This document shows, in pieces, positions 36,446-47,203 of a stretch of DNA of 64,000 nt (within the stretch, counting starts at the first letter, position 1; every line of letters begins with the position of its first letter). This stretch comes from an uncultured Chthonomonadaceae bacterium (GTDB lineage: Bacteria; Armatimonadota; Chthonomonadetes; Chthonomonadales; Chthonomonadaceae). The notes below the pieces were generated by a model. That model was not told the origin of the DNA. It searched no databases and saw only the letters and a list, made by a program, of their open reading frames with translations. Made by a program: the position numbers and the translations under genes. The stretch is taken from assembly GCA_963835065.1 (NCBI GenBank), contig CAWIEK010000049.1, positions 640,001 to 704,000 on the forward strand, given 5' to 3'.

Positions 36446-36570
36446 AGTAGTCAGTAGTCAGTAGTCAGTAGTCAGTAGAAAACCACTGTTCCTGCCCTGT
36501 GCTGTTATAATCAACAAAGGTAGCCAGTTGCATTTCTACTGACTACTGACTACTGACTACTGACTACTTA
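36446..36570. repeat. Inverted heptamer-array hairpin element (AGTAGTC)n
   Basis: Four-unit arms, core ending GCATTTCT; starts at the rplR TAA. Confidence 0.85.
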
Positions 36571-37674: not shown

Positions 37675-37687
37675 GGATGAACTCCAA

Positions 37688-37808
37688 GTAGTCAGTAGTC
37701 AGTAGTCAGTAGTCAGTAGAACACTGCTGTTCGCGCTTCCTGCCGTAAGTGACAGCAAAGACTTTCCGTTGCATTTCTACTGACTACTGACTACTGACTA
37801 CTGACTAC
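37688..37808. repeat. Inverted heptamer-array hairpin element (AGTAGTC)n
   Basis: Four-unit arms, core ending GCATTTCT. Confidence 0.85.
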
Positions 37809-38233: not shown

Positions 38234-38419
38234 TTACCAGCTCGACTTGGTGACGCCCGGAATCAGTCCTTTGTGCGACATTTCCCGGAAACAGATGCGG
38301 CACAATCCAAAGCGGCGGAACACGCCGCGCGAGCGTCCGCAGACGTTGCAGCGTGTATAAGCGCGCACCGCGAACTTGGGCTTGCGCTTGCACTTTTCAA
38401 TCAAGGCTTGTTTTGCCAA
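38234..38419 (-). CDS. rpsN: 30S ribosomal protein S14 type Z (61 aa, Zn ribbon)
   Basis: GAAGGAG RBS, TTG start; RC.VCGR.R...[11 protein letters not shown]...IPGVTKSSW. Confidence 0.97.
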
Positions 38420-38446
38420 TACGACACTCCTTCGATGTCTTGAAGG

Positions 38447-38570
38447 AGTAGTCAGTAGCCAGTAGTCAGTAGTCAGTAGAAAACCCATTCCTTCAAGCCA
38501 CTACTGCTATGCAAAGCGTCGAGCAGGCAGGCATTTCTACTGACTACTGACTACTGGCTACTGACTACTT
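38447..38570. repeat. Inverted heptamer-array hairpin element (AGTAGTC)n upstream of rpsN
   Basis: Arms plus core ending GGCATTTCT. Confidence 0.85.
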
Positions 38571-38647
38571 CCTCAGCCAAGAATTTGCAGGTCGAAAAAC
38601 GATCCTGCGCCGCGCTCCTTCTTGTGGTTCGCGACCGTGTTCGGTTT

Positions 38648-38923: not shown

Positions 38924-39756
38924 ATGCCCAACGCTTTTTTGCTCACGCTCCGCCGCCTGAATGACGCGCCCCTGCCTGCCAACACAGGGGATGTGGTTCA
39001 CGCCGCCTTTTACGACCTGCTGGCGCGCTGCGATGCCGGCCTGACCGAACGCCTGCATGACGCCAACGTCCGCAAGCCGTTCCCGCCTGCCTATGCTGCC
39101 GACCCGCCACCCCACCCAAGCCCAACCCGAATTCCTCAATCCAAAATCGAAAATCGAAAATCGAAAATCCAGACTGTGCCCTGCGCATCACTCTGCTGGA
39201 CGAAGAATTGTTCGCGCCGTTTGTGGACGGCTTGCTGCGGCAGGCCGGGACTGCGCCGCTGCGCCTGGGAAGCGCGCGGTACGCGCTCGACACGCTGCTT
39301 ACCACGTCCGCCCTCCACCCCGCAGCCGGCAGCGCCTCCTTCGCCGATTTGTGGACAGAAACGCCGCCCGCCGACGCGCTTCCCCTGAGTTTTGTCACGC
39401 CCACCGCGTTCCGTTCCCATGACCGCGATGTTTGCTGGCCCGATTCGCGCCTGTTGTGGCAATCCTGGGCGCGCGCCTGGAACGCCCATGCTCCCCCTGC
39501 CGTTCCGCAGATTGCCGAAGACCTTTTGCTTGCAGCGGCAGATCGCATCCGCCTGGGCGCGTATCATCTCCAAACCCGCAAAGCGCGCCTGCAAGGCGTG
39601 GCGCAAACCGGATTTATCGGGGAGTGCCGATTTGAACTGGGCGATCTGACGGACGCGGAGCGTCACATTGCCCGTGTGCTGGCCGAGTTCGCCTTCTACG
39701 CCGGAACCGGCCGCAAAACGGGCATGGGGATGGGGCAAACGCGGGTGAGGGGTTAG
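38924..39756 (+). pseudogene. cas6: CRISPR-associated endoribonuclease Cas6, frameshift near 39080
   Basis: N-terminal HAAFY.L....L...LHD...KPF; C-terminal F.TPT.F, GFIG.C, FAFYAGTGRKTGMGMGQ glycine loop in another frame. Confidence 0.88.
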
Positions 39757-39831
39757 GGTTCAGGTTTCAGGTTTCAGGTTTCAGGGGTGATGCTTGTTTG
39801 CTATGAACTTTGACAGGGAACGGGGAAAGGC

Positions 39832-40210
39832 ATGATTATTGTGAATTTTGCGCATCCGCTGACGGTGGAACAGCGCGCGGAGGTGGAACGGCAAAGCGGG
39901 CAGGCGGTGGAGCGCGTGATTGACGTGAAAACGCAGTTCGACGCGGCGCAGCCCTATGCAGAGCAGGCGCAAATGCTGCCGGAAGCGACCGGCCTGACAA
40001 CGGAGGAGTGGCAAACGCTGCCCCTGCTGGTCAGCCTGCCGAGTTTCAACGCGATTGCCGCGCTGCTGCTGGCGGAACTGCACGGGCGCTGTGGCTATTT
40101 CCCCGCCATCCTCCGGCGCGCCCGTTCCCAACGCGCTTCCGCCCCGCTTTGAAGTGGCGGAAATCATCAGCCTGCAAACCGTCCGTGACAAGTCTCGGGA
40201 ACAGCGATGA
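39832..40210 (+). pseudogene. csx15: CRISPR-associated Csx15 (Rossmann-like, putative cOA ring nuclease/binder), frameshift near 40117
   Basis: MIIVNFAHPLT...AELHGRCGYFPAIL; the expected RPVPNALPPRFEVAEIISLQ tail is in another frame. Confidence 0.75.
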
Positions 40211-40323
40211 AAACCAATATACTACATTTTGTGAATATATGTTACAATAGGTTCACAAACAAACGAGGAATAGCCGAACAGGAAGGCAACAAGCCCAATC
40301 TTGAGTTCTTATAGGAGTAACAA

Positions 40324-41088
40324 ATGATACGCAAGACACAGTTATCCGCTGGTAGCAACGAACGTTTTCAGCCGAAGTGATTAGTACTTTATGTCGGCAG
40401 TCTGGCGCTGTCCATACTGGGCAATGCAATTTACGGACTGCTCACCAACTGGTTTGGCGCAAACAGTTTAGCTTTGTTTGGAATTGCGTTTGGCATGGCA
40501 CTGGTTCTAGGTTTCAGCGCTTGGACACTGACGCGCCTTCTGCGCCGTGGAAACCATTCCGCCGTAATCGGCAAACGTCCGCCACGAGCGCGCGTCGGGT
40601 TGATTGTACTGGTAAGTAACAACCTGGAGGCATTGCGGAAAGCTATCGAATGGCACGGCGAGGAACTGAAAAACTGCTGGCTGATTTGTTCTCCTCTTTC
40701 AGCTCCAAATGCGCGAATTCTGGAAGAGGAATTGGTTGCGCAAGGCAAGGATGCGTGTCTGGAGTTAGTAAATGACGTGTATGATCCTATCAAATTTCTG
40801 GAGAAGGTTACAGAAATCAGCAAGCGAGCGACTACAGCCAACATTAATCCTGATGACCTTATCCTGGATTTTACAGGCATGACCTCAATTGCATCCGTAG
40901 GTTGCGTGTTGGCATGTTTGCAAACACACCTTCCGCTGCAATATACACCCGCCGTATCCAATCCGAACATGAAGGCTTTAATACCGCTTGATCCTATGGA
41001 AATTACGCTGGACTACAGCATACAGCCTCTCCATTCGCAAGCAGTCGTCGCATCTAATCGGACGCCTCCTGCTATGACCCCCCATTAG
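40324..41088 (+). pseudogene. Transmembrane-CARF effector (Cam1-like), in-frame TGA at 40378-40380
   Basis: Two N-terminal TM segments, then GLIVLVS...CWLICS...LILDFTGMTSIASVG CARF-type motif. Confidence 0.65.
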
Positions 41089-41130
41089 CCGCGCCTGTGA
41101 AGCGTTTGATCTGTACAGGGAACGATTGTC

Positions 41131-41415
41131 ATGCTGACTTGGTTTCGGATAATCGCTTATGACATTGCCTGTGACCGCCGCCGCAGGCAAATGCAGCAAT
41201 TGGCGCAGTCCGTTGCCGAGCGAGTGCAGGACAGCGTATTCGAGGGCTGGCTTTCGGATCGGGAGGTCGCAGATCTCCTGCGCCGGGCGCGGCCCTTGAT
41301 TGAGCCTGCAACCGACTCGCTGCGCATCTACCTTCTGTGCGAGTCGTGCCGGGAACAAGCGCATTGTCTGGGCGCGCCCATAACGCCCCCGCCGCCCGAC
41401 GACATTCTGACGTGA
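41131..41415 (+). CDS. cas2: CRISPR-associated Cas2
   Basis: IIAYDI..DRRR....RVQDSVFEG.L; DSLRIY.LC..C. Confidence 0.92.
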   Translation: MLTWFRIIAYDIACDRRRRQMQQLAQSVAERVQDSVFEGWLSDREVADLLRRARPLIEPATDSLRIYLLCESCREQAHCLGAPITPPPPDDILT

Positions 41416-41455
41416 AAAAGACAGGATTTTGTCTTCCCGATTCCGTATTCCTGCC

Positions 41456-42613
41456 ATGCCAACGCCCCTCTTTGCGCAATTGATGCAGCCGGAAACGCTG
41501 GCGATGGCCTGGGAACAGGTGCGCCGGGGCGGAAAAACACCCGGCGTGGATGACGTGACGCTGCCGCAGTTTGAACGCCATTTAGACCGGGAACTGCCGC
41601 GCCTGGCGAGAGAAGTACGCGAGGGCGCGTACCATCCCTGGCCGTCGCTTCGCCTCAACATCCCCAAACTAAAGGGCGGCACGCGGGCTATCGGCATCCA
41701 ATGCGTACGGGATCGCGTCGTCCAGCGCGCCCTGCTCAATCTCCTGCAGCCGCGCATTGAGCCGCAGTTGGAAGCCTGCTCGTATGCGTTTCGTCCGGGC
41801 CGCTCCGTGGCGCAGGCGCTGTCCACTCTGGATGCGCTGCATCAGGGCGGGCGAAGTTGGGCGGCGCGGGGCGATATTCGCCTGTGCTTCGATAGCCTGG
41901 CGCATGACCGGCTGCAAGCGGTTTTAAGCCGCGTCGTGCCGGAAAAGGATGTGCAGGAACTGCTCAGTCGCTGGCTGCGCGCGGGCGTGGTGGATGGCGA
42001 ACAGTGGCAGGAAACCGGGGCGGGCGTGGTGCAGGGTGACGCGCTTTCGCCCCTGCTCTGCAACCTGTACCTGGATGCGTTCGATGAAACCCTGCTGCGG
42101 GCGGGGTATGCGCTGATTCGCTATGCCGATGATTTCGTGCTGCTTGCCCACTCGGAACGGGAAGCGAGGCGCGGATTGCAGGCCGCCGATACCGCCCTGA
42201 GCGCGATTGCGCTGCACAGTAACCCGGAAAAAGCTTGGGTGGGCACGTTTATACAGGGTTTCGAGTACCTGGGCGCATCGCTGGTCGGCTCGCTGATTTT
42301 GCCGCTGCACAAAGTGGAGCGTCCGGGCAAACTTCCGCGCTACACGTTCGGCTACGGCGAACGCCCGCCCGTCCGCGCGCCCAACGAGCCGCCATGTGCG
42401 CCCGTCGTGACGCCGCTGACCGCCACCCACGCGCAATTGCGCGAGGAACTGCTGCGTTTGCGCCGCGCCCGGCAGCGGGGCCGGCAATTGCCCGCTGTGG
42501 GCGCGGCCATGCTGCAGGCGTGGGAGGAAGCCGGACGCCGCCGTCCCGCCCGACGCCGAACGGGAAGGCTGGCAAAGCGTGTATCTGATATAGGAGTAGG
42601 GGTTAGGGAGTGA
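41456..42613 (+). CDS. Group II-like reverse transcriptase, CRISPR-associated
   Basis: AW..V...PGVD, IPK..GGTR.IGI..VRDRVVQRA, SYAFRPGRS, GDI..CFD, QGDALSPLLCNLYL, RYADDF, FEYLG. Confidence 0.92.
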   Translation: MPTPLFAQLMQPETLAMAWEQVRRGGKTPGVDDVTLPQFERHLDRELPRLAREVREGAYHPWPSLRLNIPKLKGGTRAIGIQCVRDRVVQRALLNLLQPRIEPQLEACSYAFRPGRSVAQALSTLDALHQGGRSWAARGDIRLCFDSLAHDRLQAVLSRVVPEKDVQELLSRWLRAGVVDGEQWQETGAGVVQGDALSPLLCNLYLDAFDETLLRAGYALIRYADDFVLLAHSEREARRGLQAADTALSAIALHSNPEKAWVGTFIQGFEYLGASLVGSLILPLHKVERPGKLPRYTFGYGERPPVRAPNEPPCAPVVTPLTATHAQLREELLRLRRARQRGRQLPAVGAAMLQAWEEAGRRRPARRRTGRLAKRVSDIGVGVRE

Positions 42614-42699
42614 TTAGGAATTAGGCGCAATCCCAATACTAACTGCCGCGCCCCAACACCTAATCCCTAATCCCTAATCCCTAATCCTTAATCCCTATG
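42590..42699. repeat. Inverted heptamer-array element (TAGGGAT / ATCCCTA) between RT and cas1
   Basis: Degenerate taggagt/taggggt/tagggag arm and (taatccc)n arm ending in the cas1 ATG. Confidence 0.75.
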
Positions 42700-43680
42700 T
42701 CAAGCCTCGTCGTCACAACTCAAGGAGCGGTACTGCGCTGCGTGGGCGGGCAGATCGTGGCGGAATAGCAGAAGCAGGCCATGCAGAAGATTCCACAAAA
42801 CCAGGTGGAGCGCATTCTGCTGCTGGGCAGCGTCGGCCTGACAACAGGCGTTCTCAACTTCGCGCTGGAAAAGCGCATCCCCGTCACGTTTTTGACGCAG
42901 GAGGGGCAGTACAAAGGACGGCTGGAATCGGGCGGGCGGCGCGACATTGCGCTGCGGCTGGCGCAGTTTCGGGGTCTGGAAGATGTGGCCTGGCGGCTGT
43001 GCCTGTCGAAAACGATTGTAAGCGCAAAGATCGAAGCGCAGCGCGGCGTCTTGCGGCGGTGCGGGCGCAATCATCCGCAACCGCCCATCACAGCCGCCAT
43101 TGCGCAGTTGAACGATAGCCTGAACCGCATTGCCGACGCGCAAACCCTGCCCGAACTGATGGGGCAGGAAGGCAGCGCCGCCCGCGCCTACTTTCACGCC
43201 CTGCCCTCCGCCCTGCGCCGTTCCCTGCCGTTTAATGGGCGCAACCGCCGCCCGCCCAAAGACCCGGTGAACGCGCTGCTGAGTTTGGGCTACGGCCTGC
43301 TCACGGCGGAAATCATCGGCGCGCTGACGGGCGCAGGTTTGGACCCGCAGATCGGCCTCTTCCACAGTTCGCGGGGGCGCATGCCGGTGCTTGCTGAAGA
43401 CGTGTTGGAGATGTTTCGCGCTCCGGTTTCGGAAGTCCGCGCTGACACCTGAAAATTTGGGCGTGATGCGGGCGGAGCATTTCGAGAAACCTGAAACGGG
43501 GGAGCTGACAAACCCTGACCACGTACTTCAAGCACTACCGCCGGCGGATGCAGACGACGTTTCGGAACCGGCAGGGACAGCCGACCAGTTTCCGGCGCGA
43601 GTTGCAGGCACAGGCAACCCACTTGCGGCGCGTGATTTTACATCAGGAACCCTACGCGCCGTTTGAATTTCAGGTAGGCG
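42697..43680 (+). pseudogene. cas1: CRISPR-associated Cas1 with in-frame TAG (42766-42768) and two 3' frameshifts
   Basis: LVVTTQGA, LMGQEGSAARAYF, FNGRNRRPPKDPVNALLSLGY, GLDPQIGLFH; the C-terminus is spread over three frames; end approximate. Confidence 0.9.
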
Positions 43681-43689
43681 GGCCGCATG

Positions 43690-43932
43690 ACGATATTGCC
43701 CAACGCGACAAACCGGCGCAAACCTTGCTCAAGTCTAAAAGAAAAAGTGACATATGCCTCAGCAGCAAAGACAAGGGTAAGCCAGCGTCGGCGCTAACCT
43801 CCAAAACGCCAAAATAGGGAGGTTAGCGCCGGAAAAATAATCTCAACATGCTTGACAACACACGAAAAATACGCTATACTGGCTCTATGTTTCCGAGGTT
43901 AGCGCCGATGAGAAGGAAACATGAGATAGAGG
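43690..43932 (+). promoter_or_regulatory. CRISPR leader with promoter and repeated motif
   Basis: A-rich; TTGACA(43852)-17 bp-TATACT(43880); GAGGTTAGCGCCG motif in three copies. Confidence 0.8.
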
Positions 43933-45965
43933 GTTGCAACCCGACCTCTTCCCCGTAGGGGATTGAAACTGAGGATCCCAGCTCGGAGAGGCTGATGCCT
44001 TGATGCCGCTGTTGCAACCCGACCTCTTCCCCGTAGGGGATTGAAACAGAAGGTGACCGGGTTGAGGCTGTTAGCCACCAGAAACTCATTGAGTTGCAAC
44101 CCGACCTCTTCCCCGTAGGGGATTGAAACGGCGATCAGCCTTTGAAACTCTGCATGGTCTCCAGTGGTTGCAACCCGACCTCTTCCCCGTAGGGGATTGA
44201 AACGGGAGCGGTTTGGGGAGGAGGGGTTCTTCTGTGCCCTTGTTGCAACCCGACCTCTTCCCCGTAGGGGATTGAAACTCCTCAATCGAGTCGGCCTCAG
44301 CCCCGTCAATGCGGTTGCAACCCGACCTCTTCCCCGTAGGGGATTGAAACGGTAATGCGCTGCCCGGCCTCGTACTCCGGCGAAGCCTTGAGTTGCAACC
44401 CGACCTCTTCCCCGTAGGGGATTGAAACGTACTCGACCTGGACATTCGGTACGCCAAGACTCGTTGACTTCGTTGCAACCCGACCTCTTCCCCGTAGGGG
44501 ATTGAAACGATGACGTTGATCTGGTGCGGGCCGTTCAGGATGAACCGGTTGCAACCCGACCTCTTCCCCGTAGGGGATTGAAACAGGCTCCAGGGCGGTG
44601 GTGGCGATGGGTTGCATTGCCGTGGTTGCAACCCGACCTCTTCCCCGTAGGGGATTGAAACTCATGCCCCTTGGCGATGATGGGTCCGGTCGCGCACTCG
44701 TCGGTTGCAACCCGACCTCTTCCCCGTAGGGGATTGAAACAGCCTTCATACCCAGCTCACTATGTCGCATGGCACTCAGTTGCAACCCGACCTCTTCCCC
44801 GTAGGGGATTGAAACCGTTCCCAATGGTTTTGTAGAAGTAATAACGCGCCTTGTGTTGCAACCCGACCTCTTCCCCGTAGGGGATTGAAACGGCCCAGGA
44901 GAAAGGCGGTGGTAGCGGTGTCCAGGTCGAGTTGCAACCCGACCTCTTCCCCGTAGGGGATTGAAACCCGCTCGATCTCCGTGATCCTCCACATCTTGGA
45001 TATGGGGACGGTTGCAACCCGACCTCTTCCCCGTAGGGGATTGAAACAGGAGAACCACCAGCTTGTAGCTGCTACGCTCGTACTGTTGCAACCCGACCTC
45101 TTCCCCGTAGGGGATTGAAACACAGGTTCTTTCTTCACGGCTGACAGCAACGTGTCAAGTAGTTGTTGCAACCCGACCTCTTCCCCGTAGGGGATTGAAA
45201 CCCCAGCATTTCCTCCGGCACTGGAATCGATCTTTAGTGGGTTGCAACCCGACCTCTTCCCCGTAGGGGATTGAAACAATCTGCTTGTCTCTGGCTTTGG
45301 GGTCATGCTCGGGCATGAAAAGTTGCAACCCGACCTCTTCCCCGTAGGGGATTGAAACACGGCATACACCTTGGTGCGCAGTGAGGTGGGCTGAACCGAG
45401 TTGCAACCCGACCTCTTCCCCGTAGGGGATTGAAACGTTTCACGTCCTATAACAGTTAGTAGTCCGATTGTTAGGTTGCAACCCGACCTCTTCCCCGTAG
45501 GGGATTGAAACCGTAGCACCTCTTCGAAGGTGGAGCGGTCAGCCGCAGACGTGGTTGCAACCCGACCTCTTCCCCGTAGGGGATTGAAACAGGATGAACC
45601 ACCAGCTTGTAGCTGCTACGCTCGTACTGTTGCAACCCGACCTCTTCCCCGTAGGGGATTGAAACATGTTCGTTGTTGAGCGCGCTAGAGTGCCCGCAAA
45701 AGTTCAGTTTGTTGCAACCCGACCTCTTCCCCGTAGGGGATTGAAACCTTGCGTGCCTTGTGCGCTGGTGATTACTTTGAACATGGTGTTGCAACCCGAC
45801 CTCTTCCCCGTAGGGGATTGAAACCATGCTCCCAGTCTTCGGCAAGCGTCCTGTGCAGATTCGAGTTGCAACCCGACCTCTTCCCCGTAGGGGATTGAAA
45901 CTCGGACAACGAAGTTCGGTGGTGCTGGCTTTGAGGGCGCGGGAAGTTGCAACCCGACCTCTTCC
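43933..45965 (+). CRISPR. CRISPR array: 26 full repeats + 1 truncated terminal repeat, 26 spacers of 35-45 nt
   Basis: Repeat GTTGCAACCCGACCTCTTCCCCGTAGGGGATTGAAAC (37 nt, CCCC-GTA-GGGG hairpin); leader on the left, degenerate end on the right. Confidence 0.99.
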
Positions 45966-46048: not shown

Positions 46049-46096
46049 AAAAAGCAGCCTTTCGACACAAGCGCTTGTGTCGAAAGGCTGCTTTTT
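46049..46096. terminator. 48-bp perfect palindrome, probable bidirectional terminator
   Basis: aaaaagcagcctttcgacacaagc|gcttgtgtcgaaaggctgcttttt between the array and a convergent PIN gene. Confidence 0.7.
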
Positions 46097-46169: not shown

Positions 46170-46739
46170 TCAGATTTCAGTTCTGTAGGCTGCCAGTTGG
46201 TCCGCCGTAGTAACAAGCCGATTGTTCCGCAACGTTTCTATGAACTCGTCAAACGTTTTTGGTGGGTTTTGCAAAGCCGCAAGCGCTTCACGAATCACGC
46301 GCATAAACCCTATCGGTTCTGTGATTAAGAGCTGACTGATAAAGAGGTCTGGATGCTGCGCGTCGATTCTATAGGGCGCGAGCGCGGATGCTGGAAAGTC
46401 CGAAAGGTTGTACGTCACGATAATAGAAGCCTTCCCTACAATGGCAGCTGCCAGCACATGCCGGTCATCCACATCGGGCAGGACAAGGCTCTCAATTAGA
46501 CTTTCGTAACCTTCCACAAGACTACCCGCCGCATGAGTATTCATCAAGACTCGAGTACGCTCCAGTTTTGCGCGGCTAAGTTCCGGGCGATTTGCCAATA
46601 CGTTTTCCATCCACTCATCATGTATCTGTTCTGTCCAGCGAGGCGAATACAACCCCCTACCGGCAAGCCGCATAAGCAGATCGCGCAACGGAGCGGAGTA
46701 GAGAACGCACACATCTAATACTGCAACTGTTGGAATCAT
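46170..46739 (-). CDS. PIN domain protein (VapC-like)
   Basis: AVLDVCVLY, LPDVDDRHVLAAAI, IVTYNLSDFP. Confidence 0.9.
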   Translation of the reverse strand: MIPTVAVLDVCVLYSAPLRDLLMRLAGRGLYSPRWTEQIHDEWMENVLANRPELSRAKLERTRVLMNTHAAGSLVEGYESLIESLVLPDVDDRHVLAAAIVGKASIIVTYNLSDFPASALAPYRIDAQHPDLFISQLLITEPIGFMRVIREALAALQNPPKTFDEFIETLRNNRLVTTADQLAAYRTEI

Positions 46740-47203
46740 TCGTATAGTCCAAGCCGCTGTGCCTCAGCAGTCATCTCATCCAGTACCGCTTTACGCGCTT
46801 CCTGTTCCGCTTCCATATAGGCAGCCAAGTCCGCATATCGAACACGGCGATGCGTTCCGACAAGGCGGAACGCGATTTTACCCTCATCCAGCAGTTTAAT
46901 CAGGTAGGGACGCGACACGCCCATAATCGCCGCCGCCTCAAATGTGGTCAGTTCTACCGGCAGCGGCAGAGCGGTTACAGCATTGCCGTTGCCCATTTCG
47001 GCCAGAATGGAGGCGAGCAGGGAGAGGGCGGGAGCCGGAACCTTAATCGCAACCCGCTTTTCTCCCTCGCAGGATAGTTCCAGACAGTAACACTTTTCGC
47101 CGTTCATAAAGTGTTCAATTTCTTTGCCGGCTTCGCGGGCGTCTTCGCGCTCCTGCTCGGAAAGCGTAAACGCCTTTACCGCTTCATTCATCGTGGCAGC
47201 CAT
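46736..47203 (-). CDS. Excisionase-family HTH DNA-binding protein (putative antitoxin)
   Basis: ELTT.EAA.IMGVSRPYLIKLLDEGKI.F..VGTHRRV; overlaps the PIN gene start by 4 nt. Confidence 0.88.
   Translation of the reverse strand: MAATMNEAVKAFTLSEQEREDAREAGKEIEHFMNGEKCYCLELSCEGEKRVAIKVPAPALSLLASILAEMGNGNAVTALPLPVELTTFEAAAIMGVSRPYLIKLLDEGKIAFRLVGTHRRVRYADLAAYMEAEQEARKAVLDEMTAEAQRLGLYE

Follow-up and report, generated by a model that had tools for sequence, protein, structure and literature searches.

The window, a stretch of 64,000 nucleotides from the genome assembly of an uncultured Chthonomonadaceae bacterium (G000; C-numbers denote its contigs, G031 and G032 two congeners, and L-numbers fetched loci), contains on the plus strand, at positions 38924-45965, a CRISPR-cas block with the order cas6-csx15-TM/CARF-cas2-RT-cas1-leader-array (TM, transmembrane; RT, reverse transcriptase) and no effector genes in cis. 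The best explanation, to which we assign a probability of about 0.6, is that this block is a detached and largely decayed type III adaptation and signalling module, the array of which is likely to be transcribed and would guide, in trans, the unbroken type III-D complex encoded on contig C44. The gene order, strand, protein families, flanking genes and lack of local effectors had been described in an earlier sequence-only reading and were confirmed by profile matches. The same reading took the module to be otherwise whole apart from cas1, and this did not hold: as assembled, five of the six genes (cas6, csx15, the TM-CARF gene, RT and cas1) are interrupted and cas2 alone is intact. The components of the block are as follows.

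38924..39756, plus strand: cas6, frameshifted; PF19308 on the N-terminal part and PF10040 (E 2e-19) on the C-terminal part
39832..40210, plus strand: csx15, frameshifted, of the cyclic tetra-adenylate (cA4) ring nuclease/sponge family; NF040560, E 5.5e-35
40324..41088, plus strand: Cam1-like TM-CARF gene with two predicted TM helices and a TGA at codon 19; PADLOC CARF8_TM, 1.7e-53
41131..41415, plus strand: cas2, whole; PF09827
41456..42613, plus strand: stand-alone CRISPR-associated RT with YADD, frameshift near 42545; PF00078
42697..43770, plus strand: cas1 with a TAG and an indel patch, end approximate; PF01867, compared with the open copy at C44:541674
43771..43932, plus strand: leader with a sigma-70-type promoter toward the array; 11/12 consensus matches at 43852-43880
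43933..45965, plus strand: CRISPR array, 26 full repeats and a degenerate last one; repeats end ATTGAAAC

Searches for RAMP proteins and Cas10 in the assembly (91.9% complete), which carried out the genome-wide survey for cas10, csm and cmr suggested along with the sequence-only reading, detected two type III modules, III-D on C44 and III-B on C48. The description of the system as having no effector complex is accordingly correct for the locus but not for the genome, where III-D, III-B and type I-PGING modules are all found elsewhere. The region C44:94.2-103.4k encodes, in open frames, a CARF-PD(D/E)XK nuclease, Cas10 with a GGDD motif, Csx10, a Csm2-like subunit and three more Cas7 proteins, a layout that, judged from sequence, is that of an unbroken III-D module; the combination of a GGDD-containing Cas10 with Cas7, Cas5 and small subunits occurs only there, in trans to the block. 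A simple array scan detected no array beside this module. The C48 module (138.5-146.5k) includes cmr1-6 and csx1, of which cmr2 carries a frameshift and csx1 an interruption, and is followed by a csx15 gene running across the C48 and C65 ends, and the type I-PGING module on C15 has a split cas3. The cas1 gene of the latter module (L023:8925-10250) contains an insertion of about 75 amino acids that splits its profile match and is also present in L176-L179, from two genomes of the same family.

Additional fragments of the block's own gene set are scattered over the assembly. An open cas1, 90% identical in DNA, lies at C44:541.7k, where the leader and repeat are the same and the array has three repeats; C2:91-94k harbors a second relic that consists of a frameshifted cas6, open csx15 and TM-CARF genes, an RT tail alone, an inverted cas1 end, the leader and four repeats; and C63 carries an open cas6 and two related arrays. 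Open homologues are thus available for cas1 (C44), csx15 (C2; C48/C65 ends), TM-CARF (C2) and cas6 (C63), such that each badly broken gene has one elsewhere, and cas2 and RT, for which a tblastn search of the genome found no second copy in the assembly, are whole or nearly so. This distribution fits reciprocal loss, as a pattern only, given that six genes are involved. The three copies of the cas1-leader-array unit in the genome (here, at C44:541635-543097 and at C2:90990-91707) have almost the same leader and differ in their spacers; each starts directly after a tract of tandem heptamers, and these may be recombination points.

The array is the largest with this repeat in the genome and comprises 26 identical 37-nt repeats and, at its end, a degenerate copy of 20 nt, with 26 spacers that range from 35 to 45 nt. 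Because the leader promoter faces the array and the repeats end ATTGAAAC, the CRISPR RNA strand is assigned as plus. Spacers 15 (45048-45084) and 22 (45591-45628) differ by a single base, which could reflect either duplication or two captures of one site. Under a codon model with 76% accuracy in calling the coding strand, 20 of the 26 spacers (19 of 25 without the near-duplicate) are antisense to coding sequence (p=0.005-0.007), in agreement with the calibration expected for a pure coding strand. The three larger other arrays yield 25 antisense spacers of 52 (4/8, 7/16 and 14/28; Fisher p=0.013 versus this array), and two mini-arrays 1/3 and 1/1. Judging from these calls, the bias would fit guides for an RNA-targeting type III complex; capture from RNA does not follow. 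In Thermus, the same spacer strand bias is reported to arise by selection without an RT (PMC7515739). Selection would explain the present bias equally well, and the RT-linked arrays of L050, a metagenomic relative of the block, are unbiased; the strand preference therefore does not demonstrate RNA capture.

The targets of the spacers were sought in several collections. The best blastn match of 19 of the 26 spacers in the organism's own genome was 18 nt long; in a phage collection with at least 1,224 single-stranded RNA (ssRNA) phage records the best blastn hit had E 0.2, and the best tblastn hit of two reading frames through the array had E 2; a plasmid search gave weak matches only, to unannotated stretches that are probably other arrays; and five single-spacer patterns covering six of the 26 spacers had no match in IMG/VR. 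A possible resemblance of some spacer peptides to leviviral coat proteins was examined against 52 open reading frames (ORFs) from 18 levivirus loci and rejected, the mean score of the antisense peptides, 28.3 (best 41), versus 26.4-27.2 for five control sets being judged not significant. The RT-linked III-B array of Roseiflexus RS-1 is reported to match RNA phages (bioRxiv 10.1101/2022.02.15.480533); the present array is similar in being RT-linked and able in principle to record RNA viruses, and differs in that the target search found none. The antisense-biased spacers could serve as probes for unknown viruses of the host.

The breaks are spread over the whole coding part of the block. The frame of cas6 changes near 39100-39180, within a loop bearing a heptamer tract, and that of csx15 near 40115-40125, where the gene is split over two frames in comparison with the intact L050 and C2 copies and no full-length open frame is found. 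The TM-CARF gene, with a GC content of 0.50 versus 0.62-0.66 in the other five genes, has an in-frame TGA as codon 19 (40378-40380); cas1 is interrupted by a TAG stop (42766-42768) and further on contains an indel patch (about 43430-43515); and the frame shift near 42545 removes from the RT the conserved tail of its clade, which would end at 42593. Over 244 codons, cas1 differs from the C44 copy by 38 synonymous and 12 non-synonymous changes, which implies that the gene was under selection until recently and that the decay is recent. The cas6 paralogues of the window (39130-39172) and C2 (C2:94075-94170), which are 77% identical, share a tract of about four heptamer units in the same loop and an equal frame offset, which could represent an old common break, a shared assembly error or a phase switch based on repeat number.

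In the preferred scenario, the block became separated from its cas10 neighbours, either by leaving them or by losing them, was partially duplicated, and underwent recent decay. In the intact form, Cas1-Cas2 would have inserted spacers at the leader, the separate RT would have let RNA serve as a source of spacers, Cas6 would have cut the array transcript, and cA4 made by Cas10 would have opened the TM-CARF effector, with Csx15 damping the signal. At present, array transcripts would feed the C44 III-D complex after cleavage by a candidate Cas6 made elsewhere, and spacer acquisition possibly continues with the C44 Cas1 and the Cas2 of the block. Of the two roles proposed in the sequence-only reading, that of an island serving a type III complex in trans is half right: such a complex exists, but with five of six genes interrupted, the island as assembled is unable by itself to acquire spacers, process transcripts or signal. 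The other, a remnant left after loss of the complex, is apt insofar as the block is a remnant, with a probably live array, but the effector is still in the genome.

Real decay of cas1 and TM-CARF at least is favored: five broken genes of six are unlikely at background rates, and two of the changes are clean nonsense changes. As a background control, 70 ORFs of G032 were compared with this assembly under a 70% identity filter; seven were flagged, of which three were set aside as shadow ORFs or upstream extensions and four are frame changes in real genes, three of these four being net single-base indels. At background rates of 0.06-0.15, the binomial probability of five breaks in six genes is 4e-6 to 4e-4. 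Several observations weigh against the preferred interpretation. The identity filter may undercount, given that a cruder pass flagged 20 of 141 ORFs, shadow ORFs included, and stray single-base indels occur in conserved housekeeping genes of the assembly, such as those that we take, from reading their proteins, to be sufC, sufU and rplV. The cas1 patch is similar in sequence to the non-cas1 flank found at the C2 copy (a score equalled by 8 of 1000 shuffles), a resemblance not seen for the corresponding stretch of the C44 cas1 (691 of 1000), and this suggests that the patch is a consensus chimera, as from cross-mapped reads. The absence of strand bias in the RT-linked arrays of L050 (19/34) points the same way, as does an observation on the C63b array (C63:62036-63350), which has a different repeat, shares the leader-end motif and likewise shows no bias (7/16).

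These indels and the chimera-like patch would be expected if the breaks were mostly consensus errors, in which case the island would be whole and would actively acquire spacers, process transcripts and signal for III-D (and III-B) in trans. The csx15 break, which amounts to two one-base gaps within a few bases, a poor-quality stretch in a C63 array, the purifying selection on cas1 and the presence of the largest array of this repeat at the block also favor such a possibility. It nevertheless appears rather unlikely, considering that the nonsense substitutions in cas1 and TM-CARF are clean, with no primary in-frame stop among the real genes of the control, that the TM-CARF gene has no DNA-level paralogue for cross-mapping, and that no errors are seen in the 26 repeats nearby and the ribosomal genes next to the block are open. 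We conclude that decay is real for cas1 and TM-CARF at least, with some of the frameshifts being possible errors. Death of the entire block, array included, within a genome-wide loss of CRISPR functions would account for the breaks in cmr2 and csx1 on C48 and cas6 on C2, for the split cas3 on C15 and for the congeners in which no cas1 or RAMP match was found, but it is improbable, given the open III-D module with GGDD, the intact promoter and repeats, and the remaining open cas1 and whole cas2. A speculative scenario, which we consider a long shot, is a working type III system whose parts have become dispersed across four or more loci through duplication and reciprocal loss. The only cas2 of its family, the only CRISPR RT and the main array would come from the block, cas1 and the III-D complex from C44, and Csx15, TM-CARF and Cas6 from C2 and C63; in such a system, the unfused RT of an unnumbered clade would dock on Cas1 via its conserved C-terminal tail, and the one-strand spacers would record an unknown ssRNA phage.

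The RT is, as initially described, a separate ORF with an intact YADD. It contains the RT0-7 core and the catalytic YADD, adjoins cas1 and lies with cas2 and the array in an order common to L050 and L051. Its nine close homologues, 49-61% identical, include no named protein; eight of these have the tail W[QED]S[VS]YL[IV] (consensus EGWQSVYLI) and the ninth is truncated, and in the window RT the tail is encoded in another frame. The possibility that this tail is a relic of the first strand of Cas1 received no profile support, with an hhalign probability of 1.3%, off the tail.

The placement of the RT, which the sequence-only reading had left to phylogeny, is with cas-linked RTs and outside the group II introns. 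In a quick tree of 133 rows (eight of 141 were dropped as short or identical), with Shimodaira-Hasegawa-like approximate likelihood ratio (SH-aLRT) support only, it belongs to a 12-row clade (99%) nested within a 33-row group of cas-linked RTs (92%), in which four rows, on contigs of 1-2 kb, and eight proteins from databases come without context; both clade members with DNA context have the order cas2-RT-cas1. It is highly improbable that the protein derives from a group II intron inserted by chance between cas2 and cas1. The best NCBIfam match of the RT is an intron maturase model, below the cut-off (243.7 versus 300), and under an approximately unbiased (AU) test of 35 rows a position as sister to intron RTs is not rejected (p=0.39); but all 28 PF08388-bearing RTs fall within a 59-row group that excludes this clade, the PF08388 maturase domain is absent from the protein, genes abut it on both sides, and the 60 matches (E up to 1) of an Rfam scan of 36-50 kb include no group II intron RNA family. 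Intron domains V/VI were not found next to the ORF, nor were clade members located at unrelated sites lacking cas genes.

The clade profile matched 27 of 401 sampled genomes of the phylum at E 1e-60. Among the ten regions fetched, the seven that group with the RT clade are cas-linked and the other three are not; a limited local BLAST over 2-20 kb detected effector genes in one of the seven. The RT of L050 is 58% identical, and this open locus, arrays-cas2-RT-cas1-array-CARF-csx15-array-TM-CARF-cas10-csm3-csx10, has five of the block's gene families (not cas6) beside cas10; the order in L051 is cas6-cas2-RT-cas1. Another damaged example is the cas-linked RT of a relative at L164:9701-10666, which is read through a disturbed patch and has no clean YADD. 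No RT above 41% identity was found in 67 other genomes of the order, and neither congener, G031 (80% complete) or G032 (97% complete), has a cas1 or RAMP match; together these results point toward horizontal gain or patchy loss.

Effector-less RT modules are a common published case, and the arrangement is known and ordinary: roughly half the RT-cas loci are reported to be without effector genes, with function in trans proposed (Silas et al., 2017; PMC5513706). Like the modules described there, the block combines an RT beside cas1, cas2 and an array with no intron RNA and no cis effector, and unlike them as described, it has five of six genes broken and includes csx15 and a TM-CARF gene. Unfused CRISPR RTs form clades 9 (Chloroflexi) and 13 (Proteobacteria) in the account of Toro (PMC6013744), and as in these clades, the RT of the block is an ORF by itself within a type III adaptation module; given that no named protein is among the nine close homologues, its own clade may be an unnumbered subclade with a C-terminal tail of its own. 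The published spacer-acquisition experiments found concern RT fusions, and none of the literature titles found names a test of how an unfused RT joins Cas1-Cas2. The locus itself is of little weight, as one more effector-less RT module, and a damaged one, but it is a pointer to an unfused CRISPR RT clade with a conserved C-terminal tail. The clade is represented in intact form by L050, where Cas1, Cas2, a leader and Cas10 are all present and would allow such joining to be tested. The leads that merit retention are the clade's conserved tail and the one-strand spacers.

The TM-CARF family, with 104 homologues when the L050 protein is used as the query, reaches Cam1 (8T64) at the profile level (E 2e-4), and the predicted model (pLDDT 89.5) shows a pair of helices at the N terminus and an alpha/beta domain. 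Binding of cA4 by Cam1 is reported to cause membrane depolarisation (Baca et al., 2024; PMC10808066). The block protein is similar to Cam1 in having an N-terminal TM region plus CARF, but two hydrophobic helices are predicted instead of a single one, the first helix has by eye an Asn, also seen in the consensus, where Cam1 has the conserved pore Asp, and the stop is premature; going by sequence resemblance, the protein would at most work like Cam1. By their descriptions, Cam2, Cam3 and Chp1 are set apart from it. Csx15, which is reported to bind or slowly degrade cA4 (PMC13148439), is identified by a family match well above cut-off (120 bits versus 35 for NF040560) and two His motifs recognized by eye; unlike the Csx15 described in that report, the block gene has lost through the frameshift the C-terminal Arg-rich segment placed at the cA4 site (mapped by eye). 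Because Cam1 responds to cA4 and Csx15 binds or degrades it, cA4 signalling may reasonably be inferred by analogy.

The block is bounded on the left by rpsN, on the minus strand, and on the right by the following features.

46050..46095, no strand assigned: long hairpin with T tracts 3' of the array, likely a terminator; terminator called on the minus strand only
46170..47203, minus strand: PIN and HTH_17 gene pair (PF13470, PF12728), a flank whose membership in the block is not implied

A split between rplE and rpsN interrupts the ribosomal spc operon in G000 (window 38234-38488; C46:136881) and in both congeners searched. The block was rejected as the cause of this split, considering that rpsN and rplE are far apart in both congeners too, and an integrative island is unsupported, with no tRNA, even GC content and housekeeping genes across the next 85 kb. 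At C37:64854-64890, a lone degenerate repeat has a short end resembling a leader and is followed by a hairpin; it could be an orphan or regulatory mini-array. Intergenic inverted pairs of tandem heptamers are found at 36446-36568, 37687-37808 and 38447-38575 and throughout the genome, in which 1,255 heptamer tracts of at least three units were counted, some of them translated inside genes.

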